Of a DNA stretch of 64,000 bases, positions 1,583 through 19,088 are shown in pieces (within the stretch, counting starts at the first letter, position 1; each line of letters starts with the position of its first letter). The notes under the pieces are model-generated. The model saw only the letters and a list, made by a program, of their open reading frames with translations, ran no database searches and was not told the DNA's origin. The stretch is taken from NCBI RefSeq assembly GCF_041886205.1, contig NZ_CP169029.1; one strand, 5' to 3'. Source of the stretch: Escherichia coli (lineage in GTDB: Bacteria; Pseudomonadota; Gammaproteobacteria; Enterobacterales; Enterobacteriaceae). The position numbers and the translations under genes were made by a program.

Positions 1583-1621
1583 AATGCTCTCCTGTTGAAC
1601 TTACGCCTTACCGCTGTTTGC

Positions 1622-3073
1622 TTAAATGACGTACAGGTCGAGATACTCATTGACCGGCATCTGTTCCAGGCGAGTTCTGTCGAGAGAAACCTCCAGAATG
1701 CGCTGCTGTTGGCGAGTCGGGAACTGGCGCGCGAGATTGATTTTGAATTTATCGATCAGTTTCGGAATACCATCCTGACGGCGGCGAGCATGACCAATTG
1801 GGTACTCCACCACCACTTCTTCAAATCGTGTGCCGTCGGTGAACTCAAGGGTAATGGCATTGGCGATGGCGCGTTTTTCCGGGTCGTGGTAGTCAGCGGT
1901 AAATGCCGGATCTTCAAAGCAATTGATCTTCTCGCGCAGGGCGTCAATGCGTTTATCTTGCGCAACGTTGTCCTCGTAATCTGCCGCCGTTAAGCGCCCG
2001 AATAACAGCGGGATCGCCACCATGTACTGAATGCAGTGGTCGCGGTCTGCCGGGTTATTGAGCGGCCCTTTTTTGTCGATGATGCGAATACAGGCTTCGT
2101 GGGTGCGAATGGTCACTTTTTCGATATCTGCCGCCGTTTTGCCTGCGGCCTGCATCTGTTCATAGAGCGTCATCGCCGCTTCAACTGCCGTCTGGGAGTG
2201 GAACTCCGCCGGGAAGGAGATTTTGAACAGCACATTCTCCATGACGTAAGAACCGTACGGGCGCTGGAAGCGGAACGATTCACCTTTGAAGGAGACGTCG
2301 TAGAAGCCCCACACCGGCGCAGTCAGGGCTGACGGGTAACCCATTTCACCCGTTTTCGCCATCAGTGCCAGACGTACCGCGCGGGAAGTGGCATCGCCCG
2401 CCGCCCAGGATTTACGCGTGCCGGTGTTCGGCGCATGGCGATAGGTACGCAGCGACTGACCGTCCACCCACGCCAGCGAAACAGCGTTGAGAATTTCCTC
2501 GCGGGTCAGGCCGAGCATTTCGGCGACCACGGCGGTGGAAGCCACTTTCACTAACAGAACGTGGTCGAGGCCGACGCGGTTAAAGGAGTTTTCCAGCGCG
2601 ATGCAGCCCTGAATTTCATGGGCTTTGATCATTGCGGTCAGCACCTGTTTCATGGTCAACGGCGCTTTGCCGCTGGCGACCGCATTGCGCGAAAGCCAGT
2701 CCGCCGTTGCCAGAATGCCGCCGAGGTTGTCGGAAGGATGGCCCCACTCCGCCGCCAGCCAGGTATCGTTGAAATCGAGCCAGCGGATCATCGCGCCAAT
2801 GTTAAATGCCGCCTGGACGGGGTCGAGCTGGAACTGAGTTCCGGGGACGCGCACGCCGTTAGGTACGACGGTGCCAGGAACAATTGGCCCCAGCAGTTTT
2901 TTACAGGCCGGGTATTCAAGAGCTTCAAGACCGCAGCCGAGAGTGTCGAGCAGGCAGTAATGTGCGGTGTCGTAGGCTACTTTGGAGCTAATTTCGTAGT
3001 TCATCACGTAATCGACGATATCAACGATTTCACGATCAAATTCCGGGCGGATGTTGTTGATTTGAGCTGACAT
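1622..3073 (-). CDS. prpD: 2-methylcitrate dehydratase
   Basis: 483-aa ORF ([22 protein letters not shown]...), MmgE/PrpD family; prpBCDE gene order. Confidence 0.95.
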
Positions 3074-3106
3074 TGGGTACGTTTCCTTATTGTTATTCGT
3101 AGAGGT

Positions 3107-4276
3107 TTACTGGCGCTTATCCAGCGCGACAAACGGGCGGTCTTCCGGTCCAACATAATTGGCGGAAGGACGGATAATTTTGTTGTCCTGACGTTGTTCG
3201 ATAATGTGCGCCGCCCAGCCGGTGACGCGGGCGATAACAAACAGTGGTGTGAACATCTCGGTGGGAACGCCCATCATGTTGTAGGAAACGGCGGAGAACC
3301 AGTCGAGATTGGGGAACATTTTTTTGCTCTCCCACATCACTGTTTCCAGGCGATCGGCGATGTTGTACATCTTCAGCGAGCCGCCGTCCTGCGAGAGCTG
3401 CTTCGCCACGCGTTTGATCACCTGATGACGCGGGTCGGCGATGGTGTAAACCGGATGACCAAAACCAATGACCACTTCTTTGTTTTCCACGCGCTTGCGG
3501 ATATCGGCTTCGGCTTCGTCCGGCGTTTCGTAGCGTTGCTGGATCTCCAGCGACACTTCATTCGCCCCGCCGTGTTTCGGCCCGCGCAGTGCGCCAATCG
3601 CGCCAATAATCGCGGAATACATATCAGAGCCAGTGCCCGCAATCACCCGGCTGGTAAAGGTGGAAGCGTTAAACTCGTGTTCGGCGTACAGCACCAGCGA
3701 AATATGCATCGCCTTTTCCCAGCTTTGCGATGGCTTTTCGCCATGCAGCAGATGCAGGAAGTGACCTCCGATGGAGTCGTCATCGGTTTCCGGCTGGATG
3801 CGTTCGCCGTTGTGGCTGTAGTGATACCAGTAGAGAAGAATCGAGCTAAGTGACGCCAGCAGTTTGTCGGCAATATCCCGCGCGCCAGAGACAGTATGCC
3901 CCTCTTTTTCCGGCAGCGTGCAGCCGAGCGCGGAAACGCCGGTGCGCATAACATCCATCGGGTGCGACGCCGCGGGTAAGGCTTCCAGCACGGTACGCAC
4001 GTTAGCCGGTAAACCGCGCAGGGCTTTCAGTTTTGTTTTGTAAGCGGCGAGTTCGTCACGGGTCGGCAGTTTGCCGTGGATCAGCAGATGCGCCACTTCT
4101 TCAAATTCGCAATGTTCCGCGAGGTCAAGAATATCGTAGCCGCGGTAATGCAGGTCATTGCCGCTTTTACCCACGGTGCAGAGCGCCGTATTGCCCGCCG
4201 GAACGCCGGAAAGTGCTACCGATTTTTTCGGTTTAATGACATGGGTACTGTTTTGCAGGATCGTTGTGTCGCTCAT
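3107..4276 (-). CDS. prpC: 2-methylcitrate synthase
   Basis: Track frame 3107..4402; start placed at internal ATG ([18 protein letters not shown]...) giving a 389-aa citrate-synthase-family protein. Confidence 0.93.
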
Positions 4277-4320
4277 GTTGTCCTCGTCATTGTTATCATT
4301 TGTAGGGTCGAGATTGTTGT

Positions 4321-4403
4321 CGGATGCGACGCTATGCGTCTTATCCGACAGTTCAGTGCATCCCGTAGGCCTGATAAGTCGCGTCAGCGGCGCATCAGGC
4401 ATC
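4321..4403. repeat. REP-like palindromic elements in prpB-prpC intergenic region
   Basis: cggatgcgacgctatgcgtcttatccgac and gtaggcctgataagtcgcgtcagcggcgcatcaggcatc resemble REP consensus. Confidence 0.5.
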
Positions 4404-4432
4404 GGTTGTCAAATACAACCAACGGGCGTTTT

Positions 4433-5323
4433 TTATTTCGCCTGGTTACGGGCAAACAGGTCGTCGAGCTTCTCTTCGTACTGGTAATAGTTGATGCTTT
4501 CGTACAGCTCGTTGCGGGTTTGCATGGTGTCGATGACGCTTTTCTGCGTGCCTTCCTGACGCAGGACGTTGTAGACATGTTCAGCGGCGCGGTTCATGGC
4601 GCGGAACGCTGAAAGCGGGTACAGCGCCATTGCGACATGGGCGCTGCGTAATTCGTCGGTGGTAAACAGCGGTGTTGCGCCAAATTCGGTAATGTTGGCG
4701 AGGATTGGCACCTGCACCGCATCGGCAAACTGGCGGTACATGGCGAGTTCGGTAATCGCCTCCGGGAACAACATCTCGGCACCCGCTTCAACATAGGCCT
4801 GCGCACGCTCGATCGCCGCATCCAGCCCCTCTACCGCCAGCGCATCGGTGCGCGCCATGATCACAAAATCAGGATCGGTTTTCGCATCCACCGCCGCGCG
4901 GATCCGATCCACCATCTCTTCTTTCGAGACGATCGCTTTATTCGGACGATGACCGCAGCGTTTCGCACCAACCTGATCTTCAATATGCAATCCTGCCGCA
5001 CCGGCTTTAATCATCGATTTCACCGTACGCGCCACGTTAAAGGCCGAAGAACCAAAACCGATATCCGCATCCACCAGCAGCGGCAGCGAACAAACGTCGG
5101 TGATACGGCGAATATCGGTCAGCACGTCATCAAGGGTAGAAATACCGAGATCCGGCAGCCCCAGCGAACCTGCCGCCACGCCACCGCCGGAAAGATAAAT
5201 TGCCTGATATCCGGCACGCTGCGCCAACAGCGCATGATTAGCGTTGATGGTGCCAACAATCTGCAATGGATTTTCTTTAGACAGTGCAGCGCGAAACGCT
5301 TTACCTGGAGAGTGTAGAGACAT
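4433..5323 (-). CDS. prpB: 2-methylisocitrate lyase
   Basis: 296-aa ORF ([24 protein letters not shown]...), isocitrate lyase/PEP mutase family. Confidence 0.95.
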
Positions 5324-5370
5324 AGCCCATCCTTTGTTATCAACTTGTTATTTTCGTTGATAAAGACAAA

Positions 5371-5386
5371 GCAAGGGGTGTGCCAC
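5371..5386 (-). promoter_or_regulatory. sigma-54 (-24/-12) promoter candidate for prpBCDE
   Basis: Minus-strand reading GTGGCACACCCCTTGC = TGGCAC-N5-TTGC, about 50 nt upstream of prpB start, divergent from the sigma-54 activator gene prpR. Confidence 0.65.
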
Positions 5387-5561
5387 AATTGCCTTATTAG
5401 AATTAAATGTTTAATTTCAATTTGTTATAAATAAAGTCATGAAGTAATCTGCAAATATGCGTTTCAGTTAACGTTTCAGGCAATGTTTCACCGCGTTTCA
5501 TTGCAACAATTATGAAACAAGACTAAACCCAATATTCGGTTTCTTAACTTTGCGGTGCGCT

Positions 5562-7148
5562 ATGGCACATCCACCACGGCTTAATGACGACAAACCGGTT
5601 ATCTGGACGGTATCTGTAACGCGCCTGTTCGAGCTGTTTCGCGATATCAGCCTCGAGTTTGATCACCTGGCGAACATTACCCCTATCCAGCTTGGCTTTG
5701 AAAAAGCAGTGACCTATATCCGCAAGAAACTGGCAAACGAACGGTGCGACGCCATCATCGCCGCTGGATCTAACGGCGCGTACCTGAAAAGCCGCCTGTC
5801 AGTGCCAGTTATTTTGATTAAACCGAGCGGCTACGATGTGTTACAGGCACTGGCAAAAGCCGGAAAACTCACCTCTTCTATCGGCGTTGTCACCTATCAG
5901 GAAACCATTCCAGCGCTGGTGGCGTTTCAAAAAACCTTTAATCTGCGCCTCGATCAACGTAGCTACATTACCGAAGAAGACGCGCGCGGGCAGATTAACG
6001 AGCTGAAAGCTAACGGCACTGAAGCGGTGGTCGGCGCGGGGCTGATTACCGATCTGGCAGAAGAAGCCGGAATGACCGGAATTTTTATCTATTCCGCCGC
6101 CACCGTGCGCCAGGCGTTCAGCGATGCGCTGGATATGACGCGCATGTCGTTACGCCATAACACTCACGATGCCACCCGCAACGCCCTGAGAACTCGTTAC
6201 GTGCTGGGCGATATGCTCGGTCAATCACCACAGATGGAACAAGTACGGCAGACTATTTTGCTGTATGCCCGCTCCAGTGCAGCGGTGTTGATTGAGGGGG
6301 AAACGGGGACGGGCAAAGAGCTGGCGGCCCAGGCGATTCATCGGGAATATTTTGCCCGCCACGATGCGCGACAGGGCAAAAAGTCGCATCCGTTTGTTGC
6401 CGTCAACTGCGGGGCGATAGCCGAATCGCTGCTGGAAGCGGAGCTGTTTGGCTATGAGGAAGGGGCGTTTACCGGCTCGCGACGCGGAGGTCGCGCCGGG
6501 CTGTTCGAAATTGCCCACGGCGGTACGCTGTTTCTGGATGAGATTGGCGAAATGCCGCTACCTTTGCAGACTCGCCTGTTACGGGTGCTGGAAGAAAAAG
6601 AGGTCACCCGCGTCGGCGGGCATCAGCCTGTTCCGGTAGATGTACGGGTCATTAGCGCCACTCACTGCAATCTGGAAGAAGATATGCAGCAAGGACGTTT
6701 TCGCCGTGATCTGTTTTATCGGCTGAGTATTTTGCGTCTGCAATTGCCACCACTGCGCGAGCGGGTGGCGGATATTCTTCCGCTGGCGGAAAGCTTTTTG
6801 AAAGTGTCTCTGGCGGCGCTCTCCGCCCCGTTTTCTGCCGCATTACGCCAGGGATTACAGGCAAGCGAAACCGTGCTGGTGCACTACGACTGGCCAGGTA
6901 ATATTCGTGAACTGCGCAATATGATGGAGCGACTGGCGCTATTTTTAAGTGTGGAACCGACGCCGGATTTAACGCCGCAATTTTTGCAGCTGCTACTGCC
7001 GGAACTGGCGCGCGAGTCGGCGAAAACTCCCGCTCCACGCTTACTGACACCACAACAGGCACTGGAGAAATTTAATGGCGATAAAACAGCAGCGGCGAAT
7101 TATTTAGGCATCAGCCGGACGACGTTCTGGCGGCGGCTGAAAAGCTGA
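5562..7148 (+). CDS. prpR: sigma-54-dependent propionate catabolism activator
   Basis: Track ORF 5550..7148; start placed at ATG 5562 ([15 protein letters not shown]...); AAA+ sigma-54 interaction domain ([13 protein letters not shown]) and C-terminal HTH. Confidence 0.93.
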
Positions 7149-7245
7149 ACTGCCGAATGCAGCGCGAACGCTTTATCCGGCATAAATTTCAATAGATGAT
7201 CGCCGATAAACTTACGCATCGGGCATGTTTATATAGGGTTCAGAA

Positions 7246-7521
7246 TTACTTCTTCTTATAAATATCCGCCGTGCCGTGGATCTTATTGTCAGTCTGACCG
7301 GAGGTCAGCACCAACACATCAGCCCCTTTTTCATCGGCTTTTTTGATCAGATCTTCTTTCGCATCTGCGGTCGACATTTCATTACTGGTTGAAATATCAC
7401 CTATTTTTTCATATTGCGATGCAACTTTTTCAAATTCCGCTTTGGTCATTAATTCTGCGGCATAGATATTGGTAACGGCAAACGCTAACGCACCGACTAA
7501 CATTTTAGAGATTATTTTCAT
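7246..7521 (-). CDS. yahO: small periplasmic protein YahO (DUF1471-like)
   Basis: 91-aa ORF with signal peptide [23 protein letters not shown]... Confidence 0.85.
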
Positions 7522-7667
7522 ATTACGGCTCCAGAGTTGTTATCACACTATCACCCACCCACATTATTGGGTTGATTAATAATTAGTTCAGTCAGGGCAT
7601 AAACGCCAGTAACCGGAAATAAGACACTTTGTGATCTCTCTCGCACCCGATTATTTTTGGTAGAAAT

Positions 7668-8339
7668 ATGATGCAGTTAGTTCACTTATTTATGGATGAA
7701 ATCACTATGGATCCTTTGCACGCCGTTTACCTGACCGTAGGACTGTTCGTGATTACTTTTTTTAATCCGGGAGCCAATCTCTTTGTGGTAGTACAAACCA
7801 GCCTGGCTTCCGGTCGACGCGCAGGGGTGCTGACCGGGCTGGGCGTGGCGCTGGGCGATGCATTTTATTCCGGGTTGGGTTTGTTTGGTCTTGCAACACT
7901 AATTACGCAGTGTGAGGAGATTTTTTCGCTTATCAGAATCGTCGGCGGCGCTTATCTCTTATGGTTTGCGTGGTGCAGCATGCGCCGCCAGTCAACACCG
8001 CAAATGAGCACACTACAACAACCGATTAACGCACCCTGGTATGTCTTTTTTCGCCGCGGATTAATTACCGATCTCTCTAACCCGCAAACCGTTTTATTTT
8101 TTATCAGTATTTTCTCAGTAACATTAAATGCCGAAACACCAACATGGGCTCGTTTAATGGCCTGGGCGGGGATTGTGCTCGCATCAATTATCTGGCGAGT
8201 CTTTCTTAGTCAGGCGTTTTCTTTGCCCGCTGTGCGTCGTGCTTATGGGCGTATGCAACGCGTTGCCAGTCGGGTTATTGGTGCAATTATTGGTGTATTC
8301 GCGCTACGCCTGATTTACGAAGGGGTGACCCAGCGGTGA
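7668..8339 (+). CDS. yahN: LysE/RhtB-family amino-acid exporter
   Basis: 223-aa hydrophobic ORF; synteny. Confidence 0.85.
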   Translation: MMQLVHLFMDEITMDPLHAVYLTVGLFVITFFNPGANLFVVVQTSLASGRRAGVLTGLGVALGDAFYSGLGLFGLATLITQCEEIFSLIRIVGGAYLLWFAWCSMRRQSTPQMSTLQQPINAPWYVFFRRGLITDLSNPQTVLFFISIFSVTLNAETPTWARLMAWAGIVLASIIWRVFLSQAFSLPAVRRAYGRMQRVASRVIGAIIGVFALRLIYEGVTQR

Positions 8340-8355
8340 GCAGATAATTTACTCT

Positions 8356-8601
8356 CTACGTAATCAACCTGATTTGCCGAATCCCGACCATCGGCGATGA
8401 TAGCCCCCGTAATGCGTGGTCCTTATTTCCGATAAGTTTACTTGAGTCTTTAGCTTCCCATTTCAGCCCACTCTCCCCTGTGTGGGCTTTTTTCATTGGT
8501 CTGCCCCATCCTGAATAGCCAAACAATGGCAATGTTCCACTTTGCAGGGATGATAATAAGGGGATCTGATTCAGAAGAGTTTTGAAAAGTTGGACCGCCA
8601 T
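8356..8601 (-). CDS. yahM: small hypothetical protein YahM
   Basis: Track ORF 8356..8631 begins at a TTG; internal ATG at 8601 (MAVQLFKTLLNQ...) gives 81 aa; synteny only. Confidence 0.55.
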   Translation of the reverse strand: MAVQLFKTLLNQIPLLSSLQSGTLPLFGYSGWGRPMKKAHTGESGLKWEAKDSSKLIGNKDHALRGLSSPMVGIRQIRLIT

Positions 8602-9013
8602 CGAGGCCTCGAACCCCGTACCATACAACAATCCTGGTTGTCGTCTGCTCTTCCTGATGAGCTAATGGCGGTTTTTGATATGAGCCTTACAGCATATTTT
8701 CTGTCAGGCTTGAGTGCGATGCGTAAGATACAGAAAAGACCCCACACAAACATGATGGAATTATGATTTTTTTCATATGAATGTCAACCCACACATTCAC
8801 AAAACATCTGCATGAGATCATTTTTTATACACCGCATGGCTGCGAAACCACTACTGGTGCTTTTTTAAGCGAAGTGTCGCCGATCACAACAAAATATAGG
8901 CGAAAAAAGAGATGGAATGCCTGTTGGCATACAGATATACAGATGAAATGATTACCTGCATTGCGATTCACTCTCAGGTGGAATAACAATTTGCAGGTGG
9001 AACCCTTTCTGAA

Positions 9014-9829
9014 CTAAAGAGTGTAGCGGATTTTAACGTGCTTATTTACAGGATAATATCTGTCACCTAATTCCTGCACTCTATTAGATATCCATTCATT
9101 TAATCGCGCATCATCTCTGTATGTTTTTACGTCCAGAACAGAGAGCAATAACATCACCAGTGATTCAGGAAAAACAGGGTAGATATTTTTTAAGTGTAAT
9201 AATAATCCATGCGCAAGCGCCTGCTTAATGGGCGCGTCTGTCTCCGGAATAGACGACATTTCGCGAAGCCATTTTTCCACATGCATACACTCTTTCCCTT
9301 TAGGGAAAATTTTCAGCAAAGGCATATGGTGTTCAAGAAGAATACATTTGCAATCTGTTCGCACTGAATCGATAAACTGCACTAATTTCTTAAGCCCGGT
9401 AAAGCGTCCAGCCTGCACGTTTGCTTTAATATCAAGAAACGCATCATCCTGGTCATATACCCAAACTGTCCCTTTTTGATTTTCAAGTATGTGAAAAACA
9501 AACTTAACCGGGTGATCAGGGTAATCCATCCAGTCATAAAATCCAGGGAAATCATTAAACTGCACATTTATGGTGAGTGCGTTATCGTCTGACCACTCAC
9601 AGTCTCGTACGGCAGCCATGAGATGAATGAGTTTGTCGTCATCGACTAAATCATCACGACAATCATAAGGATAATCATAATATTGTTTAATCAAAACCTT
9701 GAATATATCGACACAGGAAACCAGGGAGCTTTTGATATCCTCTGGTAACTGATTGTTTTTAACCGTATTAAGTATGCTTTGTTGCGTATATGGCATCAAA
9801 TTATTGTGCGGAGCTTTTAATGATATCAT
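9014..9829 (-). CDS. yahL: hypothetical protein YahL
   Basis: 271-aa ORF; synteny; no recognisable motif. Confidence 0.8.
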   Translation of the reverse strand: MISLKAPHNNLMPYTQQSILNTVKNNQLPEDIKSSLVSCVDIFKVLIKQYYDYPYDCRDDLVDDDKLIHLMAAVRDCEWSDDNALTINVQFNDFPGFYDWMDYPDHPVKFVFHILENQKGTVWVYDQDDAFLDIKANVQAGRFTGLKKLVQFIDSVRTDCKCILLEHHMPLLKIFPKGKECMHVEKWLREMSSIPETDAPIKQALAHGLLLHLKNIYPVFPESLVMLLLSVLDVKTYRDDARLNEWISNRVQELGDRYYPVNKHVKIRYTL

Positions 9830-10071
9830 CGCGATCTCTCTTAAATAAAAATAAACGTCGCAGATAATAAAGCTCTGATTAAACCAGGCACTATCAGAAA
9901 TCGCTCATAACTAACGTGTGAAGTATTGTGTACTGGAGGGCGTTAATTTAACAATTTAAATTTACGTTATAGGTTTTACTGCTACTTTGATATTATTTCG
10001 CTCTCCTTAACTAAAAAGTTAAGTGGAGAGCGAAGTTAATATGTTAAACCACAGGGTATTTATTAATTTTT

Positions 10072-11121
10072 TCAGTCTGTTAGTGTGCGATTATCGATAA
10101 CAAAACGATATTTCACATCACCGCGCAGCATTCGCTCATAGGCTTCATTAATTTGATCGGCCCGAATCATCTCTATATCAGCCACGATGCCATGTTCGGC
10201 GCAAAAATCGAGCATCTCCTGAGTTTCTGGAATGCCGCCAATCATAGAACCGGCTATCGCACGGCGTTTCATGATCAGGTTGAAAACTTCCGGCGATTTA
10301 TGCGGTGTCGCAGGCGCACCAACCAGCGTCATGGTGCCATCACGCTTCAGCAAGGTGGTAAAATCGTCGAGATTATGTGGCGCAGCTACTGTATTCAAAA
10401 TGAAATCGAAACTCTTCAGATGAGCCGCCATCTCATCGGCATTGCGTGAGTTAACAACTTCATCGGCCCCCAGGGCTTTTGCCGCTTCGCGTTTTGCCTC
10501 AGAAGTGGTAAATGCCACCACATGTGCCCCCATCGCGTGGGCCAGCTTAATCCCCATATGTCCCAGACCGCCGATGCCGACCACGCCCACTTTTTTACCC
10601 GGCCCGGCCTGCCAGTGACGTAGCGGCGAATACGTGGTGATCCCTGCACACAACAAAGGAGCCACCGCCGCCAGCTGCTCTTGCGGGTGACGAATACGCA
10701 GAACATATCGCTCATGAACGACGATCTGTTGTGAGTAGCCGCCCAGAGTATGGCCCGGTTCGTCCGGCGTCGGCGAGTTATAGGTGCCGGTCATGTGATC
10801 ACAGTAGTTTTCCAACCCGTCTTCACACTCTTCGCAATGTTTACAACTGTCGACAATGCAGCCGACACCGACCAGATCGCCCGGCGCATATTTTTCTACC
10901 TGATCACCAACGGCTACCACACGCCCCACAATTTCATGACCCGGCACGCAGGGGTAAACCGTCCCCGCCCACTCGGAACGGACCTGGTGGAGATCGGAAT
11001 GGCAAACGCCACAGTAAGCGATTTCGATTTTGACATCATTCGGTCCCGGTTCACGCCGGGTGATATCCATCGGTTCAAGTGGTTGTTTAGCGGAATATGC
11101 ACCAACAGCTTTGATCTTCAT
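10072..11121 (-). CDS. yahK: NADPH-dependent aldehyde reductase (Zn-dependent alcohol dehydrogenase family)
   Basis: 349-aa ORF with GHEIVG zinc-ADH motif and GVGGLGH Rossmann motif. Confidence 0.93.
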   Translation of the reverse strand: MKIKAVGAYSAKQPLEPMDITRREPGPNDVKIEIAYCGVCHSDLHQVRSEWAGTVYPCVPGHEIVGRVVAVGDQVEKYAPGDLVGVGCIVDSCKHCEECEDGLENYCDHMTGTYNSPTPDEPGHTLGGYSQQIVVHERYVLRIRHPQEQLAAVAPLLCAGITTYSPLRHWQAGPGKKVGVVGIGGLGHMGIKLAHAMGAHVVAFTTSEAKREAAKALGADEVVNSRNADEMAAHLKSFDFILNTVAAPHNLDDFTTLLKRDGTMTLVGAPATPHKSPEVFNLIMKRRAIAGSMIGGIPETQEMLDFCAEHGIVADIEMIRADQINEAYERMLRGDVKYRFVIDNRTLTD

Positions 11122-11207
11122 TGTGTTTACTCCTGATTAGCTATGTGTATTTGGCAACGCCTGATATGTCATCGCGGCAAAACGCGTCCATTGAATATAG
11201 CCAATAT

Positions 11208-12164
11208 TTAAACCACCCGATCCAGCCCCAACATGCCGCGAGCCTGAATGAAACAGAGCAGCAACGTTCCCCATAAGGCCATCGTCAGGTAGGGGCTTAT
11301 ACCGAGAATATTGAAGCCGCTTTCAATAATTTGCAGAAGAAACAGCGCCAGCACCATACCAATTATCCGCCCGCTGCCGCCGTCCGGATTAACCCCGCCG
11401 AGTACTGCCGCGAGGATTGACACCAGCAAGTACGATTCGCCATAAGAGGCCTTAGCCGAGTTGAGTTTCGACATCATCAAAAATGCCGCTACCGCACAAA
11501 GCAAGGCGGAAATGACATAAACCCAAATCAGCACCCGACGAGTGTTAATGCCGGAGTAAAGTGTTGCTCGTTCGTTAGACCCAATCAGGTAAATGGCTTT
11601 ACCGAGCGGCGTTTTCTCCAGCAATATCCACAGCCCCAGTGCCACTGCGGCAAACAACCACATCGGTAGCGGAATACCGAACCATTGCGCATGATTCAAC
11701 CACAGCACCCATGAGGGATAATTGGCAATGGCGCTACCACCTGTCACCAGAATATTTATCCCTTTGAGCAACGTCATCATCCCAAGCGTTGCAAGAATTG
11801 GCGACACTCGAATACCAGCAATCAATACGCCGTTACATAAACCGATTATCACCGCCGCGCCAGCGCCCGCCAGTAACGTAGCGACAACCGTAGCAATACC
11901 CGGTGGATACTGAGTCGCCACCCACGCCATCACCAGTGAACAGGCGTTAGCAGTGGCTATAATTGACAAGTTAATGCCACCGCAAAGCATGGTCACCGCC
12001 ATAGCCAACGCCAGAATGCCCAGCACGGGCATTTGCGAAGCGACGGACTGGAAATTACTTATCGACCAGAAAATCTCCGGCATAGTAATGCTGAACGCGG
12101 CAACAGTTAGCACCAGCAGGCCGATCAAGTAAAACTCAACGTTATTACGCCACGATTTTTTCAT
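11208..12164 (-). CDS. sugar ABC transporter permease (second membrane subunit)
   Basis: Hydrophobic ORF; start placed at ATG 12164 forming an ATGA overlap with the upstream permease stop. Confidence 0.85.
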   Translation of the reverse strand: MKKSWRNNVEFYLIGLLVLTVAAFSITMPEIFWSISNFQSVASQMPVLGILALAMAVTMLCGGINLSIIATANACSLVMAWVATQYPPGIATVVATLLAGAGAAVIIGLCNGVLIAGIRVSPILATLGMMTLLKGINILVTGGSAIANYPSWVLWLNHAQWFGIPLPMWLFAAVALGLWILLEKTPLGKAIYLIGSNERATLYSGINTRRVLIWVYVISALLCAVAAFLMMSKLNSAKASYGESYLLVSILAAVLGGVNPDGGSGRIIGMVLALFLLQIIESGFNILGISPYLTMALWGTLLLCFIQARGMLGLDRVV

Positions 12165-13132
12165 AGCAGACTCCGGTTCTGATGCTGACTCCACGCCGTG
12201 GCACTAATGCTGGCAACGATGATGATGCCGGTGATCAATGTTTGCCAGTAAGACGAGACTCCCAATAAATTTAGCCCGTTTTGCATCACTGCCAACAACA
12301 CCACGCCGAGCAAAGTACCGGTTAACGTGCCGCGCCCGCCGAGCAAACTAGTGCCGCCAAGCACCACCGCAGCCAGTACTGTCAGCTCATAACCCAGAAG
12401 AGAATCGGGGGCGACAGTCATCACCGTCCACGACTGCACTACACCCGCAGCGCCAGACATCAATCCCATATAGCCATAGACGAAAAGTTGCAGTTTCAGC
12501 ACGCTAAAGCCGATGCGACTGGCTGATTCGCGGTTCCCGCCAAGGGCATAAATTTTGCGCCCTACACTGGTGAAATTCATGATAAACGCTGTTAGCAGCA
12601 CCACCGTAATCATGGCGATCAGCGGCAGACCAAGGCCATAGTCATAGCCATCAGCATCGGTATACTTGAACAACATAACCCCCTGCTCAAACCACGGCGG
12701 AAAGTCGTACAGCCACACACCTTTACTCAACCATAACAGCAGGCCATAGAAAATATTCAGCGTCGAGATAGTGATGATGATAGAAGGCACCCGTAGGCGA
12801 TTAACCAGTAAGGCGTTAATTAAGCCAAGTAAAATGCCGATGCAGCCCGCCAGTGCAAACGCGACAGCGAAGTTGCCACCAATTTTTTGCAGCAACAGCA
12901 CCATGCCGTATTGCGCAATGATGGTCATTGCTGGAAACGAAATATCAATTCCACCGGAAATCAACACCACAAACAAACCACAGGCGAGAATAGTCAACAT
13001 GGCATAGTTATTGGCGAGATCGTACAAATTACCGAATGTCAGAAACTCGTCGCTGCGCCAGGCAAGGCCAACAAACATCACCACAATCAGTAATGCCAGC
13101 CAGAATTCATGGCGTTTTTTCAGTTCAGCCAT
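12161..13132 (-). CDS. sugar ABC transporter permease (first membrane subunit)
   Basis: 323-aa hydrophobic ORF, RbsC/LsrC-like; overlaps ATPase gene 3' end. Confidence 0.85.
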   Translation of the reverse strand: MAELKKRHEFWLALLIVVMFVGLAWRSDEFLTFGNLYDLANNYAMLTILACGLFVVLISGGIDISFPAMTIIAQYGMVLLLQKIGGNFAVAFALAGCIGILLGLINALLVNRLRVPSIIITISTLNIFYGLLLWLSKGVWLYDFPPWFEQGVMLFKYTDADGYDYGLGLPLIAMITVVLLTAFIMNFTSVGRKIYALGGNRESASRIGFSVLKLQLFVYGYMGLMSGAAGVVQSWTVMTVAPDSLLGYELTVLAAVVLGGTSLLGGRGTLTGTLLGVVLLAVMQNGLNLLGVSSYWQTLITGIIIVASISATAWSQHQNRSLL

Positions 13133-14624
13133 TTACCACCTCCGCAATCCTGGCCTGAGAACTGCTGTCAGGCAGGAAGCTATGGGTGATCTGACCTTTT
13201 TGCATTACCAAAATCCGGTGGCTTTGATACCACGCTTCTTCAATTTCATCGCAGATCATCAATACCGCAATGCCATGAGCCGCCAGATCGCTGATAATGC
13301 CGTATATTCCTGCTTTGTTGGCGATATCAACACCGACTGTCGGGCTATCGAGAATCAACAGTCGTGGCCCAATCGCCAGCCATTTGGCGATCGATACTCG
13401 CTGCGCGTTACCACCAGAAAGCGTATTCACCGGAAGATGAGGATCAGAGACTTTGATGGTCAATGCCTTGATTAGCCTGTCCACCAGGTCACGCACTTTA
13501 GTTTCACTCAGAAAGCCGAAGCGATCTTTTACCTTGTGAAAAACAGTGCTAATGATGTTGTCTTCAATAGATTGCGCCATCACCAAACCGCGCGACATGC
13601 GATCTTCCGAAACATAACCAATACCGTGGCGGATGGCGTCCTGGTTACTATGCAGTGTAACCGGCTGGCCGTTGATGAGGATCTCGCCAGCATCCGGTCG
13701 GGTCATACCAAACAGACTCAGACATAATTCCGTGCGCCCCGCACCAAGCAGGCCAACAATCGATACCACTTCGCCCGCTTCCACCCGCAAGTTAATATTT
13801 AGATATTCCCCATGACGACTTAAATTACGCACCTCCAGCACCGGGGTGCTGGATTTTCCCTGCCACAACTCTCGCACCTGATATTCAAACTCCTGGCCGG
13901 TCATCAGGAAACCGAGTTGTTTTGTGGTCATCTCTGCAGCCGGAAAAGTCCCGACCAGCTCACCATCTTTCAGCACTGAAATACGGTCGGAAACTTCCAT
14001 CACTTCTTCCAGACGATGACTGACGAAGACCACGCAGATCCCGCGTTCACGCAATTGATGCACCACCTGTAATAACCCTTGCACTTCCTGATGGGTCAGC
14101 GAAGCGGTTGGTTCATCCATCACGATCAACCGTGCGTCCTGCGCCAGTGCACGGCAAATTGCCACCAGCTGACAGCGGGCAATTGAAAGCTCAGAAACGA
14201 GCGTATCCAGTGGCAATGTGACGTTAATACTAGTCATTGCCGCCTGCGCCACCTCACGCAGACGACGGCGGTTAACAAACAGACCGTGGTGATAGTGATT
14301 CACGGCGATATTCTCCCAGACACTCAGGTTAGGAAATAAAGAGAGGTCCTGATAAATCACCTGAATCCCCTGCGCCACCGAAGCGGCTGGTGTCAGCTTT
14401 GACCAGTTTTTCCCACCAAGCGTAATTTCCGCTCCCTCATCCGGGCGATAAACACCGGACATAATTTTAATCAACGTCGATTTACCACAGCCGTTTTGTC
14501 CGGCAAGGCAGTGCACTTCACCCGACATAAAGTCGAGAGAAACATCGCGCAGCGCTCGCGTGGCATGAAACGTTTTGTTGATATGACGAAGGGAAAGGAA
14601 GGTTTCCATAACATCCCCTGGCAA
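13125..14624 (-). CDS. sugar ABC transporter ATP-binding protein (duplicated ABC domains)
   Basis: 499-aa ORF with two Walker A motifs (GQNGCGKST, GLLGAGRTE) and two LSGG-type signatures, as in CUT2-family ATPases. Confidence 0.9.
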   Translation of the reverse strand: MPGDVMETFLSLRHINKTFHATRALRDVSLDFMSGEVHCLAGQNGCGKSTLIKIMSGVYRPDEGAEITLGGKNWSKLTPAASVAQGIQVIYQDLSLFPNLSVWENIAVNHYHHGLFVNRRRLREVAQAAMTSINVTLPLDTLVSELSIARCQLVAICRALAQDARLIVMDEPTASLTHQEVQGLLQVVHQLRERGICVVFVSHRLEEVMEVSDRISVLKDGELVGTFPAAEMTTKQLGFLMTGQEFEYQVRELWQGKSSTPVLEVRNLSRHGEYLNINLRVEAGEVVSIVGLLGAGRTELCLSLFGMTRPDAGEILINGQPVTLHSNQDAIRHGIGYVSEDRMSRGLVMAQSIEDNIISTVFHKVKDRFGFLSETKVRDLVDRLIKALTIKVSDPHLPVNTLSGGNAQRVSIAKWLAIGPRLLILDSPTVGVDIANKAGIYGIISDLAAHGIAVLMICDEIEEAWYQSHRILVMQKGQITHSFLPDSSSQARIAEVVNG

Positions 14625-14657
14625 TAAGAATCGGGGCTTTCGCCCCGAAGAAATGGA

Positions 14658-15644
14658 TTAATAAAGTGAGTCGATATTGTCTTTGTTGACCAGTAATACC
14701 TTATGGAAACGGATAATTCGCTTATCCATATCTACGTCGGCCTTACCCAGATTCTGCATTTCTAATCCAGGTTTGATCTCTTCACCCTTCAGCAACGTGC
14801 TGGCGACGGCTGCGAGTGCGTAACCTGCAGAGGCCGGATCGTAAGTAATCCCTTCGGTGATATCACCACTTTTAATCAGTGATGCCGCCTGTGAAGGGAT
14901 CATCATGCCATAGACTGCGACTTTATTTTTCGCCCGTTTCTCTTTCACCGCACGTCCCGCGCCAATCGGACCGTTTGAACCAAAGGAGACAACCGCTTTC
15001 AAGTCAGGATAGGTTTTCATCAGGTCCAGTGTGGTACGACGTGAGTCATCCACACTCTCGGCAACCGGCATGCGGCGGGTAACTTCATGCATATCCGGGT
15101 AATGCTCTTTCTGGTATTTCACCAGCAAGTCAGCCCATAAGTTATGCTGCGGCACGGTCAAACTACCCACGTAAATCACATAGCCGCCCTTGCCCCCCAT
15201 GCGTTTCGCCATATGCTCAACATATTCAGCGGCAAATTTTTCGTTATCAATGATTTCGATATCCCAGTTAGCACTTGGCTGACCGGGGGATTCGTTGGTC
15301 AGAACCACAATTCCGGCATCTCGCGCTTTTTTGAATACCGGTTCCAGCACGTTGGCATCGTTTGGCACGATAGTAATTGCATTAACCTTACGGGCGATTA
15401 AATCCTCAATAATTTTAACTTGTTGCGGAGCATCAGTACTTGAAGGCCCCACCTGTGAGGCATTAACACCAAAGGCTTTACCCGCCTCAACCACACCTTC
15501 GCCCATGCGATTAAACCACGGCATACCATCGACTTTAGAAATATTCACCACGATTTTTTCCGCTGCCTGGAGCGGCGCAGAAATTAGCGCAGCGCCTAAT
15601 AACAGCGAAGACACCATATTGATAACAAAACGTTTATTCATCAT
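14658..15644 (-). CDS. periplasmic sugar-binding protein, LsrB-like
   Basis: 328-aa ORF with signal peptide; C-terminal ...HKVLLVNKDNIDSLY and internal TYPDLKAVV resemble what I recall of LsrB (from memory). Confidence 0.8.
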   Translation of the reverse strand: MMNKRFVINMVSSLLLGAALISAPLQAAEKIVVNISKVDGMPWFNRMGEGVVEAGKAFGVNASQVGPSSTDAPQQVKIIEDLIARKVNAITIVPNDANVLEPVFKKARDAGIVVLTNESPGQPSANWDIEIIDNEKFAAEYVEHMAKRMGGKGGYVIYVGSLTVPQHNLWADLLVKYQKEHYPDMHEVTRRMPVAESVDDSRRTTLDLMKTYPDLKAVVSFGSNGPIGAGRAVKEKRAKNKVAVYGMMIPSQAASLIKSGDITEGITYDPASAGYALAAVASTLLKGEEIKPGLEMQNLGKADVDMDKRIIRFHKVLLVNKDNIDSLY

Positions 15645-15876
15645 TTCAGCCTCATTGCAGGGTAGTCAGGAAGTGTTCGCCCAAATTAGCGCGCTGGAGA
15701 GAATAAGAATTTTCGAATATTTTTATGCAGAATAAACAGCTCTATTTCAGGCAGCTATTAAAAATATGGTTATAAATATGGACAAAACGGGCAGCAATAA
15801 TAAGTGTGACATTCATCACGTAAAAAACAGCAAAATAAACAAAATTAGCGATATTTTATGTTTGTGAGCTTATTTC

Positions 15877-15900
15877 GTGTAGATAAATAGTTATCTACAC
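15877..15900. promoter_or_regulatory. perfect 10-4-10 palindrome GTGTAGATAA-ATAG-TTATCTACAC (candidate operator or hairpin)
   Basis: Perfect inverted repeat overlapping the ASCH-gene stop codon and lying in the region upstream of the ABC transporter operon. Confidence 0.35.
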
Positions 15901-16305
15901 AACGTCAATAAGGGCATATTCTTCAAAGATAACGTCCATTTCTGGTGAATAGCTTCCTTCTGCCTGGAAAAAACGACGGTGTTCATTACGCCAATATTCA
16001 AGACTGAGGTCACCTTCACCTTCCTTACGGGCAAGCTCCGCGGTGACATCAGAAAAGCGCAGTAAATGCAGGCCAATCACTCTGATAACACATACAGGCT
16101 CACCACAGCTATTTTCTACAATCTTATACTCACCAATCATCGGAAATGCGTTGTCTTCAATACATCCCGCCAGCGAACCACAGGAAGCTGTTTTAACACC
16201 AGTCGCAATCAACGTTGCGAGGTGATCGGCCAACGCGGCTGAATCGCCAAAAGTACAAAAGGAAGCATGGGGATATTTTTGTGAGAATTTTTCTTTTATG
16301 GTCAT
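15895..16305 (-). CDS. ASCH-domain-like (PUA-fold) protein
   Basis: Track ORF 15895..16335 begins at TTG; start placed at ATG 16305 (MTIKEKFSQKYPHASFCTFGD...); ASCH call by eye. Confidence 0.6.
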   Translation of the reverse strand: MTIKEKFSQKYPHASFCTFGDSAALADHLATLIATGVKTASCGSLAGCIEDNAFPMIGEYKIVENSCGEPVCVIRVIGLHLLRFSDVTAELARKEGEGDLSLEYWRNEHRRFFQAEGSYSPEMDVIFEEYALIDVV

Positions 16306-16603
16306 GGAAATATTTTTGCGATTACGGAAAAACAAATCACATCTTAATTACTGTTGGTAACCATCAGCAAGAGTATCATTGGTTTTTCGATACTGAATCT
16401 TTTTTATCCGAAGCAGGTCACATTTATGGCCTGATAAATACCTTTGTTAAAACTCACTTTTGTGTATTTCTCTCAAATAATCCCCTGGAAATTATGCCGG
16501 GAGATTATAAAGTTCAGGATCATTCATTAGCAAACCATTCCCGCCCCACTCCCTGGGGCTTAAATCTCTTACCGTTCACCGTTGCAGACATATCAAATGC
16601 GCA

Positions 16604-17986
16604 TCAACCTGCCACACTCCCCCACACCAGTTGCCCTTTATGGAACGTTGCGGTTCTCGGCGAGATACGCGCCACCGCCTCGGCGGAACAGGAGGCGTCC
16701 ACCAGCACAAAGCTGGCGTCATCCTGCGCTTTTGGCCATACACGCTCGCCTTTTTCATTCAGCGGCAATACATCGCCAGTGGCTAAAAACAGCGAACGGG
16801 AGAGGTTCTGTTCGTTAGGACGAATATAGAGCTGCGCGTAGAGATTGGCTTTTTCCAGCATGCCGCCCAGACCATAAGGCGACCAGTGGTCGATAACGCT
16901 GTCAGTGCCAGTCATCACTTTTACGCCTTTGTCGTGCAGCTGTTTGAGCGGCATATGCAGCGTGCCAATCGGCACCGTCGAGGCGATAGAAATTTGCTGC
17001 GCCGCCATCCGGTGCGCCAGCGCATCGACCTGTTGTTCGTTGAGCGTTGCCAGCGCAAAGGCGTGGCTGATGGTCAGCTTACCTTTCAGTTGTGGCGTTT
17101 TCTCCACTGTTTCAACCATATAATTGATGGCCGCCACGCCCGCCGGAGTGGTTTCGTGCAGGTGAATATCGACGCCTTTGTCGTAGTCCAGCGCAATCTG
17201 AAACATGGTGTCGAGGGATTTTTCCATCGCGCCATCGACACTGGTCGGGTCCAGACCGCCGACGTAATGCGCGCCCGCCTGCATTGCTTCACGCATTAAG
17301 GGTTCCGATTTCGACAGCAGCAAACCGTGCTGCGGGAAGGCGACGATTTCACACTCGAAGCCCGCCTGACGCCGCGCCAGCACCGCCTGCAAATTTTGCA
17401 GATTTTTCAGGCCGGAAACCGGTTCGATATTGCAGTGGCTGCGGGCAATGGTGGTGCCTTTCGACTGCAATAGTTCGATCAGTTTTTCCGCCCGCTCCTG
17501 CGTGTACGGTTGTAACTCCGGCAGCATTTTCTGCTCGAGTTTGATCATGTCCTGGATGGTGGTGCCTGCCGGGCGATTGAGCGAGCGCCACGGCCCGCCG
17601 TAGAAGGTTTTGTCGAGATGAATATGCATGTCGCGAGTGGTGGGCAGCATCAGCTTACCGCCAGCATCATAGTGCGGTAGCGTGGCGTCCGGATGCTGCT
17701 TGTTCTCGCGCAGAGCAACAATTTTGCCGCTCTGAATCTCTACGGTCTGGTGCGCCGTGCGGGTCTGTACCGCCACACCGTTTTCGTAATCAAATCCGGT
17801 TTCCAGCAGCACGTTGTCGAGATAGTAGTGCGGGTCAGTGATTTTCATGGTGTTATTTGCCTCGCAGTGGGTTGTGCCAGAGACTGCCGCATGGGCGAGC
17901 GGCACAGAGGTACCAAACAGCGCGGCGGCAGTGACCATCTTACCGCTCTGGCTCAGAAACTCACGGCGGCTATTGTTTTCTTTCAT
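16604..17986 (-). CDS. yahJ: amidohydrolase-family deaminase with twin-arginine (Tat) signal
   Basis: 460-aa ORF; N-terminal SRREFLS...AHA Tat-type signal; metal-dependent hydrolase-like. Confidence 0.88.
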   Translation of the reverse strand: MKENNSRREFLSQSGKMVTAAALFGTSVPLAHAAVSGTTHCEANNTMKITDPHYYLDNVLLETGFDYENGVAVQTRTAHQTVEIQSGKIVALRENKQHPDATLPHYDAGGKLMLPTTRDMHIHLDKTFYGGPWRSLNRPAGTTIQDMIKLEQKMLPELQPYTQERAEKLIELLQSKGTTIARSHCNIEPVSGLKNLQNLQAVLARRQAGFECEIVAFPQHGLLLSKSEPLMREAMQAGAHYVGGLDPTSVDGAMEKSLDTMFQIALDYDKGVDIHLHETTPAGVAAINYMVETVEKTPQLKGKLTISHAFALATLNEQQVDALAHRMAAQQISIASTVPIGTLHMPLKQLHDKGVKVMTGTDSVIDHWSPYGLGGMLEKANLYAQLYIRPNEQNLSRSLFLATGDVLPLNEKGERVWPKAQDDASFVLVDASCSAEAVARISPRTATFHKGQLVWGSVAG

Positions 17987-17995
17987 CTTACGTCC

Positions 17996-18946
17996 TTACG
18001 TTTTAATAATATGAGTGCCCGTTTCGCCACGCAGCGCCGCTGGCAGGCATTCCGGCGTGGTGATAATCACTTCTTTACCGCCCTGTTCCAGGAACGTCAG
18101 GCTGGCGATGATTTTTGGCAACATGCTGCCGGGCGGGAAATGTCCTTCCTGCATATAGCGAGTCATGGTGGCAATATCCACCCGATCCAGCGCCTGCTGC
18201 TCGAGTTTGCCAAAGTGAATACACACTTTTTCGACGCCGGTGGTGATCACCAGAATGTCGGCGTGAATTTCACGGGCCAGCAGCGCGGTAGAGAGATCTT
18301 TGTCGATAACCGCGTCCACGCTTTGGTAATCCCCCGCTTCAGTACGCACTACCGGAATTCCGCCGCCGCCCGCGCCAATTACGACAAAACCTTGTTGGAT
18401 CAGCGCCTTAATGGCAGGTGCCTCGACAATACGTTTCGGTTCCGGCGAGGCGACCACGCGGCGATAGCCCCGCCCGGCATCTTCAACAAAACACCAGTCA
18501 GGGTTTGCCTTTTGTAGTTCGTCACGCTGACTTTCACTAAAGAATGCGCCGATGGGCTTGGTGGGATGAGCAAAACCCGGATCGTTTATATCCACTTCCA
18601 CCTGAGTCACCACGGTGACGGCTTTTTTCTCGCCGTGACGCGCCAGTCGGTTGTTCAGCGCCTGTTGGATCAGATAGCCAATGCCGCCTTGCGTATCCGC
18701 TACACAGTTCGCCAGCGGCGTTAATGGCAGCCCTTCGCGCTCGTGGGCAATCTCCGCACGGCGTAAATCCAGCCCGACCTGCGGCCCGTTGCCGTGGGTC
18801 AGCACAATGTCGTAATCGGAAGCCAGCATTTCCAGCAGCGTATCGGCGACGGCTTTCACCGCCTCCGCCTGATGCTCAATCGACTGGCTGGCGTTATTTT
18901 TGATAATGCTGTTGCCACCAATGGCAACGACCACAAGCTCTTTCAT
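17996..18946 (-). CDS. yahI: carbamate kinase-like protein
   Basis: 316-aa ORF MKELVVVAIGGNSII...; amino-acid kinase fold. Confidence 0.9.
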   Translation of the reverse strand: MKELVVVAIGGNSIIKNNASQSIEHQAEAVKAVADTLLEMLASDYDIVLTHGNGPQVGLDLRRAEIAHEREGLPLTPLANCVADTQGGIGYLIQQALNNRLARHGEKKAVTVVTQVEVDINDPGFAHPTKPIGAFFSESQRDELQKANPDWCFVEDAGRGYRRVVASPEPKRIVEAPAIKALIQQGFVVIGAGGGGIPVVRTEAGDYQSVDAVIDKDLSTALLAREIHADILVITTGVEKVCIHFGKLEQQALDRVDIATMTRYMQEGHFPPGSMLPKIIASLTFLEQGGKEVIITTPECLPAALRGETGTHIIKT

Positions 18947-18996
18947 GTTGTTATGTCCGCTACAGAGGGTGATGAGGTTATGACCAACGCCAGACT

Positions 18997-19075
18997 GCCT
19001 GATGCGCTACGCTTATCAGGCCTACAATTCTCGGGCCATTCGTAGGCCGGATAAGGCGTTCACGCCGCATCCGGC
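18997..19075. repeat. REP-like elements between yahI and yahG
   Basis: gcctgatgcgctacgcttatcaggcctac and gtaggccggataaggcgttcacgccgcatccggc. Confidence 0.55.
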
Positions 19076-19088
19076 ATAAACATGTAAG

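Follow-up and report, generated by a model that had tools for sequence, protein, structure and literature searches.

An Aau-type importer operon between yahK and yahJ of Escherichia coli and its apparent deletion from K-12

The stretch of DNA analyzed here, hereafter the window, is a segment of 64,000 nucleotides (64 kb) from Escherichia coli (contig NZ_CP169029.1) that carries a four-gene ABC transporter operon on its minus strand, at positions 11208–15644, between yahK and yahJ. This operon is very probably an intact copy of the published Aau importer (AauABCD, Z0415–Z0419), which takes up D-ribulose under the control of AraC. The system is already known and experimentally characterized (Nat Commun 2024 and 2025): ligand binding, structure, AraC dependence, AraB kinase activity, and growth and gut-fitness phenotypes were all worked out by others in enterohemorrhagic E. 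coli (EHEC; PMC11127945, PMC12307932). In the window, near-identity to the characterized copy, four intact genes, identical ligand residues and a conserved promoter module are observed. With Aau, E. coli can draw on D-ribulose in the gut, and the system contributes to the colonization fitness of EHEC; it is also a clear example of an importer that relies on a regulator and a kinase whose genes lie elsewhere. Because this biology has been published, the window copy brings no new biology on the system itself. What is added here is the correction of two annotations (an autoinducer 2 name and an ATPase start), deletion scars in K-12, a promoter module resembling CRP and araI sites, and the linkage of related operons to ara gene clusters.

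Identity of the operon with Aau

All coordinates are positions in the window; genes were called from a list of open reading frames (ORFs) and families from NCBIfam and Pfam profiles. In the direction of transcription the operon consists of the following genes.

14658–15644, minus strand: aauA, periplasmic substrate-binding protein with a signal peptide (327/328 amino acids); binds D-ribulose, by its match to structure 9I1M (PMC12307932)
13125–14609, minus strand: aauB, fused ATPase with two nucleotide-binding domains, 494 amino acids, intact; matched over its full length by the AraG, YtfR, XylG and LsrA models
12161–13132, minus strand: aauC, permease 1, 323 amino acids; matches the AraH, RbsC and LsrC permease models
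11208–12164, minus strand: aauD, permease 2, 318 amino acids; ORF open to 12194

The initial annotation, made from the sequence alone, had described four co-directional and partly overlapping genes next to an ASCH-domain gene, in the order binding protein, ATPase, permease, permease, had assigned them to a CUT2-type monosaccharide ABC importer, and had seen no neighboring kinase or regulator. The ORF list, the RefSeq annotation of the locus and the profiles (Pfam PF04266 for the ASCH domain) agree with this description on every point, including the lack of an adjoining kinase or regulator in E. coli. The ORFs of aauB and aauC overlap by 8 nucleotides (nt) and those of aauC and aauD by 4 nt. 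All four proteins fall into the CUT2 group with full-length NCBIfam alignments, and the hallmarks of that group are present, namely two nucleotide-binding domains in one polypeptide, permeases of the RbsC/AraH type, and a sugar-binding protein of periplasmic-binding-protein type I. The ATPase and permeases match AraG/AraH, RbsA/RbsC, XylG, YtfR and LsrA/C/D models, none of them at the equivalog cutoff, while the top models for AauA, RhaS (137 bits; cutoff 342) and LsrB (112 bits; cutoff 384), both remain far under threshold.

Identification of the system comes from its binding protein. In a sequence search of the PDB, AauA matched chain 9I1M_A ("sugar-binding protein", 328 amino acids) over its full length with 326 of 328 residues identical (E 5e-214), the two substitutions, I31V and D201V, being conservative. 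Structure 9I1M is the crystal structure of AauA with D-ribulose from the EHEC "accessory L-arabinose uptake" transporter (PMC12307932). In that structure alpha-D-ribulose is sandwiched by Trp43 and His167 and hydrogen-bonded to Lys37, Glu118, Glu196 and Ser223, and the protein binds D-ribulose with a dissociation constant (KD) of 1.98 uM and L-arabinose with a KD of 598 uM (PMC12307932). All six contact residues (K37, W43, E118, H167, E196 and S223) are present in the AauA of the window. The initial annotation had considered the substrate unknown and had itself named pocket residues identical to those of a transporter of known substrate as the finding to set against this view; such identity is what the comparison gave, so the substrate of the system is not unknown.

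The locus as a whole corresponds to the one defined by Cottam et al. (Nat Commun 2024, PMC11127945), in which Z0415 encodes the binding protein, Z0416-7 the ATPase, and Z0418 and Z0419 the permeases. It shares its chromosomal position, gene order, gene content, promoter region and ligand residues with Aau of EHEC O157:H7, and the placement of aau between yahK and yahJ is exactly that of EHEC genomes such as O103, O111 and O157 strains. Unlike that copy, the window copy lies in a host that is not an EHEC reference strain; the 8.2 kb from 9900 to 18100 are identical to those of an isolate from bear feces. In EHEC, the aau promoter responds solely to L-arabinose and shows no activity when araC is mutated, and overexpression of aau partially rescues an araE mutant on L-arabinose (PMC11127945). 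D-ribulose does not induce aau; it benefits growth only when L-arabinose is present, and this benefit requires both aau and araBAD (Nat Commun 2025, PMC12307932). Purified AraB phosphorylates D-ribulose, and D-ribulose uptake with AraB-dependent use has been published for EHEC strains ZAP193 and TUV93-0 (PMC12307932).

On this basis the window copy would work as follows. AauA would capture alpha-D-ribulofuranose in the periplasm with micromolar affinity, L-arabinose being bound about 300-fold more weakly, and would hand the sugar to the AauC/AauD permease pair, with transport powered by the fused ATPase AauB. As the operon encodes neither a regulator nor a kinase, its transcription would depend on the core-genome AraC bound to L-arabinose, and the D-ribulose taken up would be phosphorylated by the L-ribulokinase AraB and enter the pentose phosphate pathway. 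Given that both transcription and phosphorylation pass through the arabinose system, D-ribulose would be used only when L-arabinose is present.

Two readings under which this copy would not be a working D-ribulose importer can be set against this assignment. One is that the locus is decaying and non-functional, as the premature stop in the aau ATPase of EDL933/TUV93-0 documents for one EHEC lineage (PMC11127945), and RefSeq does give a shortened ATPase of 467 amino acids, starting at 14528, in a genome with 100% identity to the window here (NZ_AP045833.1). The stop of EDL933/TUV93-0 is not present in the aauB of the window, and its reading frame (13125–14624) is open for 499 codons up to a TTG, the likely start being the ATG at 14609, which yields 494 amino acids. 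Relative to the copy in avian pathogenic E. coli (APEC) E18006, where the ATPase is annotated with 494 amino acids, AauA differs at 1 of 327 residues, AauB at 3 of 494 (491 identical), AauC at 2 of 323 and AauD at 3 of 318 (at least 99% identity throughout). AauB retains one consensus ATP site, made up of the N-half Walker A (GQNGCGKS) and Walker B (LIVMDE) motifs and the C-half LSGG motif, and its other site is degenerate, which is the usual arrangement in CUT2 ATPases; the other three genes are full length. The RefSeq start removes the N-terminal strand before Walker A, and the NCBIfam alignments begin at residues 6–10 of the long ORF. Taken with the open frame and the 494-residue annotation in another strain, this indicates that the RefSeq start is probably an error, placed too far downstream, and that the short ATPase reflects a choice of start site and not a lesion. 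A truncated ATPase, which the 467-residue entry had suggested, was thus ruled out by the comparison with the 494-residue ortholog and by the motif check, and a decayed locus is highly improbable.

The other reading is that of an LsrB-type uptake system for autoinducer 2 (AI-2). RefSeq names AauA "autoinducer 2 ABC transporter substrate-binding protein" across E. coli genomes, LsrB is the second-best NCBIfam model for it, and the LsrB structures 5GTA, 3T95 and 1TJY are found as distant matches (E 1e-21 to 1e-24). Aau and LsrACDB also share the CUT2 family, the periplasmic-binding-protein fold class and the lysine in the first strand (K35 in LsrB, K37 in AauA), though the gene order lsrACDB differs from that of aau. 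As quoted in one study, functional LsrB receptors are characterized by more than 63% identity to the LsrB of S. Typhimurium together with residues K35, D116, D166, Q167, P220 and A222 (PMC3386761). AauA has 28% identity over 295 aligned residues to the LsrB chain of 5GTA, and of the six residues only K35 is kept, E118, Q166, H167, F221 and S223 standing in the other positions. Its score falls well short of the curated cutoff of the LsrB hidden Markov model (HMM; NF011937), and no lsrK, lsrR, lsrF or lsrG neighbors aau, the neighbors being yahK, the ASCH-domain gene and yahJ. Since the LsrB cutoff and the residue comparison both fail and the protein was crystallized with D-ribulose (PMC12307932), the AI-2 product name is wrong, and AI-2 uptake can for practical purposes be considered refuted. 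The resemblance to LsrB pointed out in the initial annotation is therefore distant and holds at the family level only.

Promoter region and predicted control by AraC

The identification as Aau predicts that the promoter responds to AraC, and the region upstream of aauA contains the following candidate elements.

15805–15820, minus strand: CRP-like site CGTGATGAATGTCACA, whose start lies 27 nt upstream of that of the AraC-like half-site
15756–15793, minus strand: araI-like AraC operator, consisting of an I1-like half-site TGCCCGTTTTGTCCATA (15777–15793), the spacer TTTA and an I2-like half-site TAACCATATTTTTAATA (15756–15772)
15729–15734, minus strand: -10-like hexamer TATTCT, 21 nt downstream of the I2-like site

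On the coding strand the aau order is CGTGATGAATGTCACA - 11 nt - TGCCCGTTTTGTCCATA - TTTA - TAACCATATTTTTAATA - 21 nt - TATTCT. In the araBAD promoter PBAD the order is TTTGCACGGCGTCACA - 13 nt - TAGCATTTTTATCCATA - AGAT - TAGCGGATCCTACCTGA - 20 nt - TACTGT, a sequence that was confirmed in E. coli genomes, where it lies between araC and araB with 100% identity. Both thus consist of a CRP site, I1, a 4-bp spacer, I2 and about 20 nt to the -10 element, and they differ in the gap between CRP site and I1, which is 13 nt in PBAD and 11 nt at aau. Dependence on AraC and L-arabinose is likewise common to aau and the AraFGH and PBAD promoters. AraFGH is itself a CUT2 importer, and among the NCBIfam models AraG and AraH rank first or second for the Aau ATPase and permeases; AauA, in contrast, is not AraF-like, its best models being RhaS and LsrB, and the high-affinity ligand of Aau is D-ribulose.

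When the sequences upstream of the operon in Escherichia, Klebsiella, Franconibacter, Mangrovibacter and Symbiopectobacterium are aligned, the CRP-like GTGA-N6-TCACA, the I1 segment TTnTCCATAT and the I2 segment TAnC are invariant within a region that is poorly conserved elsewhere; the Klebsiella operator, for example, reads TAGTATTATTATCCATA-TTTA-TAGCTGAATATTACCTG. A pair test was then applied to 80 related loci, described below, and to shuffled regions, asking for a CRP-like site (at most 2 mismatches) followed 27–28 nt on by an I1-like site (at most 2 mismatches). This fixed-spacing pair was found in 44 of the 60 Aau-type upstream regions, in none of the 20 Rbl-type regions and in a fraction of 8e-5 of the shuffled regions. 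A perfect TAGCN7TCCATA occurs in the upstream regions of many Pasteurellaceae.

Several points weigh against the assignment of the window copy to an AraC-controlled D-ribulose importer. As single matches the sites carry no weight: across the window, AraC half-sites of the form TAGCN7TCCATA with at most 2 mismatches number 42, with 44 expected, which is no evidence alone, and the CRP consensus alone is found twice, with 1.7 expected, which is not significant. The I1-like half-site of E. coli has itself 2 mismatches to TAGCN7TCCATA and is degenerate at its TAGC end. The main texts of PMC11127945 and PMC12307932 make no mention of an AraC site, araI or CRP, and direct binding of AraC to the aau promoter was not shown in that work. 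Moreover, the behavior of this non-reference strain is only predicted, from its sequence, to resemble that of EHEC ZAP193; araC and araBAD lie outside the window and are assumed to be in the genome from their near-universality (the PBAD region is found in 5,398 of 5,426 complete E. coli genomes); and in the gut either D-ribulose or L-arabinose may be the more important substrate. The CRP-like and araI-like sites are nonetheless accepted as credible on the strength of their conservation across genera and of the fixed-spacing test, and not of the single matches. AraC and CRP would then act directly at 15756–15820, and these sites would offer a plausible cis-element for the published AraC dependence, with a conservation that reaches well past E. 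coli. Neither this module nor the adjacency to ara genes in other genera, described next, occurs in the searched text of the two Aau papers.

Relatives in other genera and the sugar transported

Relatives were taken as the best 80 of 151 loci related to AauA in a genome collection (L003–L082), and were divided by binding-protein identity into an Aau type (at least 68%; n = 60) and an Rbl type (about 60%; n = 20). All 80 retain the four-gene order, and the six D-ribulose contact residues are invariant in 80 of 80, down to 58% identity. At residue 166 (window 15147–15149), next to the ligand-contacting His167, all 60 Aau-type proteins have Gln and all 20 Rbl-type proteins have Leu; this residue aligns with the AI-2-contacting Asp166 of LsrB. 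Gln166 versus Leu166 is therefore a candidate for a specificity switch, as judged from the alignment.

The Rbl system of Citrobacter rodentium (RblABCD-RblK-RblI, ROD_24811-61) shares with Aau the four-gene layout, about 60% identity and the six contact residues. It differs in that an FGGY D-ribulokinase lies directly downstream in 20 of 20 Rbl-type loci and a KpsF-like isomerase in 19 of 20, whereas neither was found in the window by ORFs or profiles. Furthermore, Rbl is induced by D-ribulose and not by L-arabinose in C. rodentium, and the CRP/araI-like module of the Aau type is missing from its relatives. A closer relative is PDB entry 3D02 from Klebsiella pneumoniae, deposited as a "putative LacI-type transcriptional regulator", which is an AauA ortholog (E 5e-188) from the same four-gene operon; a literature search on this entry found no describing paper. 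The binding protein of the K. pneumoniae locus is about 92% identical to AauA, but the surroundings differ from those in E. coli: the upstream genes encode a tryptophan-tRNA ligase paralog and an HlyD-type protein, the downstream genes an oxidoreductase and a LysR regulator.

Aau-type operons stand alone in Escherichia, Klebsiella, Yersinia and others, and lie among arabinose genes in several families. In Providencia, aauABCD is followed by araC and then by araB-araA. In the Budviciaceae Limnobaculum, Budvicia and Leminorella the arrangement is araB ... araC-aauABCD, and the intervening genes in Limnobaculum are araG and araH, preceded by a binding-protein gene in the position of araF with a weak match. 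Chelonobacter and Testudinibacter have araC-aauABCD-araB. Other Pasteurellaceae have an AraC-family regulator upstream and a different FGGY kinase downstream, and the regulator of Actinobacillus indolicus scores above the AraC HMM cutoff. Taken with the promoter module, this arrangement suggests that the link of the transporter to AraC and AraB is old and not an innovation of EHEC.

The same gene neighborhoods bear on whether Aau is mainly a scavenger of L-arabinose, taken up perhaps in a minor furanose form, with D-ribulose binding as a minor side activity. The original name, "accessory L-arabinose uptake", implies as much, and so do induction solely by L-arabinose through AraC, the partial rescue of the araE mutant (PMC11127945), and the location of Aau-type operons within ara clusters (araC, araB, araA), the operon of Chelonobacter running straight into araB. 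Against this stand the two dissociation constants given above (PMC12307932), and the deletion of aau, which causes no growth defect on L-arabinose alone and abolishes the D-ribulose benefit (PMC11127945, PMC12307932). The ligand residues are also those of the D-ribulose-specific Rbl system, and in Budviciaceae canonical araG and araH, above their NCBIfam cutoffs, adjoin the Aau-type operon, which argues for a distinct role of Aau. A primary role in L-arabinose uptake is accordingly unlikely, and D-ribulose is kept as the substrate.

As a separate observation, the Aau-type operon of A. indolicus (L042, 6033–16014) lies between an AraC-family regulator and an FGGY kinase that is not AraB, in the vicinity of sgbH/ulaD-like (yiaK/sgbH-like), IclR-type and 3-dehydro-L-gulonate 2-dehydrogenase genes. 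The regulator and kinase, without the remaining neighbors, were also seen in other Pasteurellaceae (e.g., L048 and L050). This context hints at a different pentulose, such as L-xylulose.

Distribution in E. coli, the K-12 allele and neighboring features

Of the 5,426 complete E. coli genomes, 2,205 contain the 8.2-kb interval in full and 2,213–2,222 (about 41%) the operon interior; the remaining genomes match the yahK and yahJ flanks only. The initial annotation was right that the system is strain-variable and absent from K-12: in K-12-type genomes yahK and yahJ are separated by a gap of 376 nt without the operon, and in a K-12 derivative RefSeq records a fragment of 75 nt adjoining yahK as "incomplete, missing N-terminus". 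The gap was resolved by BLAST and local alignment against the window.

Window 10072–11121: yahK flank (ORF list)
Window 11208–11279, minus strand: last 72 nt of aauD, persisting in K-12 as a pseudogene fragment
Window 16604–17986: yahJ flank (ORF list)
K-12 gap nt 1–158: window 11122–11279 at 100% identity, including the last 72 nt of aauD
K-12 gap nt 159–167: filler of 9 nt
K-12 gap nt 168–293: aligns with indels to window 15801–15944, from inside the CRP-like site to the 3' end of the ASCH gene
K-12 gap nt 294–315: filler of 22 nt
K-12 gap nt 316–376: window 16543–16603
Window 11280–15800: apparent deletion 1 of K-12-type genomes, about 4.5 kb, comprising aauABCD without its last 72 nt and the core promoter
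Window 15945–16541: apparent deletion 2 of K-12-type genomes, about 0.6 kb, comprising the larger part of the ASCH gene and the sequence upstream of it

The K-12 gap thus retains the end of aauD, the TGTGA half of the CRP-like site, the rest of which has diverged, and the last 50 nt or so of the ASCH gene. These remnants of aauD and the ASCH gene identify the K-12 site as a deletion derivative and not the ancestral state, since an ancestral empty site could not hold them. The polarity of the initial annotation, which had described the genes as "inserted" between yahK and yahJ, is reversed. The same 376-nt allele, with the same junctions and only single-nucleotide differences, is found in strain PSS-16 and in ATCC 25922, and APEC O1:K1:H7 carries the full aau locus; we take both ATCC 25922 and APEC O1:K1:H7 to belong to phylogroup B2. 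Strains without aau, K-12 and many B2 strains included, carry this two-part deletion allele.

The alternative, that aau is a recently acquired horizontal island inserted between yahK and yahJ with K-12 as the ancestral empty state, follows the wording of the Aau papers ("O-island / horizontally acquired") and their report of enrichment in phylogroups B1, E and D. It would fit the patchy distribution, the different flanks of the closest relatives outside Escherichia (Klebsiella and Franconibacter, about 92%), and the finding that among the best 80 of 151 relatives there is no other Escherichia species, a scan that was no direct test of those species; among the same loci, yahK/yahJ flanks occur in no genus other than Escherichia. 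A recent insertion would leave clean empty sites, but those of K-12 and B2 strains hold aauD and ASCH remnants with identical junctions. The G+C content of the operon (0.49–0.53) is like that of the flanking core genes, that of the spacer and the ASCH gene being about 0.38–0.42. Within the species, aau alleles are 95–100% identical, like those of core genes, and a divergence of up to about 5% is as expected for long residence in E. coli. A divergent Escherichia genome also has aau next to yahK. No integrase, tRNA, insertion sequence or direct repeat was seen at the borders of the locus in ORFs and annotation, a scope that included no systematic repeat search. The features of a horizontal island, namely a mobility signature, atypical G+C and clean empty sites, are thus not found, and a recent island is an improbable explanation, although an ancestor of E. 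coli may have acquired aau at an earlier time.

Loss by deletion, by contrast, would agree with a wider reading that we favor by no more than a modest degree, adjacency of genes and conservation of motifs being indirect evidence. Under this reading the Aau-type transporters would not be an acquisition specific to pathogens but a long-standing branch of the AraC regulon in Gammaproteobacteria; aau would have been present in the ancestor of E. coli, and the joint use of a pentulose and L-arabinose would be ancestral. The reading draws on the promoter module, which extends from Escherichia to Aeromonas and Pasteurellaceae, on the adjacency to araC, araB, araA or araFGH, on the invariant pocket and on the old two-part deletion allele. 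The conservation of the cis-element beyond E. coli calls into question the framing of Aau as a horizontally acquired island that hijacks the arabinose regulon.

Some further observations concern the occurrence of aau. The divergent genome (L029; NZ_JAATUR010000022.1, 1–14700) is labeled E. coli, with YahL 79% identical, and has the order ykgEFG-like genes, pdeL (yahA), aauABCD-yahK-yahL, lacking both the block from yahB to yahJ and the ASCH gene. The interiors of the aau operon and of the ASCH gene are matched by two plasmid records, and the wider interval is matched at ten plasmid places. A contig of 4748 nt from a metagenome-assembled genome labeled "Bacteroidales bacterium" (L003; SFEK01000152.1) has 99–100% protein identity to E. 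coli aauABCD and most likely belongs to E. coli, having been binned wrongly. The yah region shows a second presence/absence difference in the spacer between yahI and yahG (window 18947–19088), which has 142 nt here and 421 nt in K-12, where it contains the small ORF yahH (L002, 7017–7313).

The remaining features lie next to or within the operon.

15895–16305, minus strand: ASCH-domain gene, 136 amino acids (Pfam PF04266, E 6e-22)
16504–16533: promoter-like site of the ASCH gene (promoter scan)
14631–14648, minus strand: GC-rich hairpin TCGGGGCGAAAGCCCCGA followed by TTCTTATT in the gap between aauA and aauB (terminator-like scan and sequence)

The ASCH gene is separated from the start of aauA by an AT-rich spacer of 250 nt. 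Its interior, found in 2,213–2,218 of the 5,426 E. coli genomes, is as frequent as aau, and the two travel together in the species. Beside aau in the 79 loci outside E. coli proper, the divergent Escherichia locus included, the ASCH gene was found in none. A functional part in Aau was ruled out by this absence despite the co-occurrence in E. coli, and the gene is treated as a mere neighbor of aau that was removed by the second apparent K-12 deletion. A perfect 10-bp inverted repeat, GTGTAGATAA-ctat-TTATCTACAC (15877–15900), overlaps its stop codon and is kept in the K-12 scar with one mismatch in the left arm (AGATAA to AGACAA); as no T-run follows, it is not a typical intrinsic terminator.

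Promoter and terminator predictions in the window as a whole showed no enrichment over shuffled sequence, and the hairpin and the ASCH promoter are weak features. The hairpin between aauA and aauB may be a partial terminator or a stabilizer of the messenger RNA that would favor an excess of the binding protein. The 86 nt between aauD and yahK (11122–11207) contain no terminator-like structure, so that transcription induced by arabinose at the aau promoter may continue into yahK. In K-12 these 86 nt are still found upstream of yahK, together with 72 nt of aauD.

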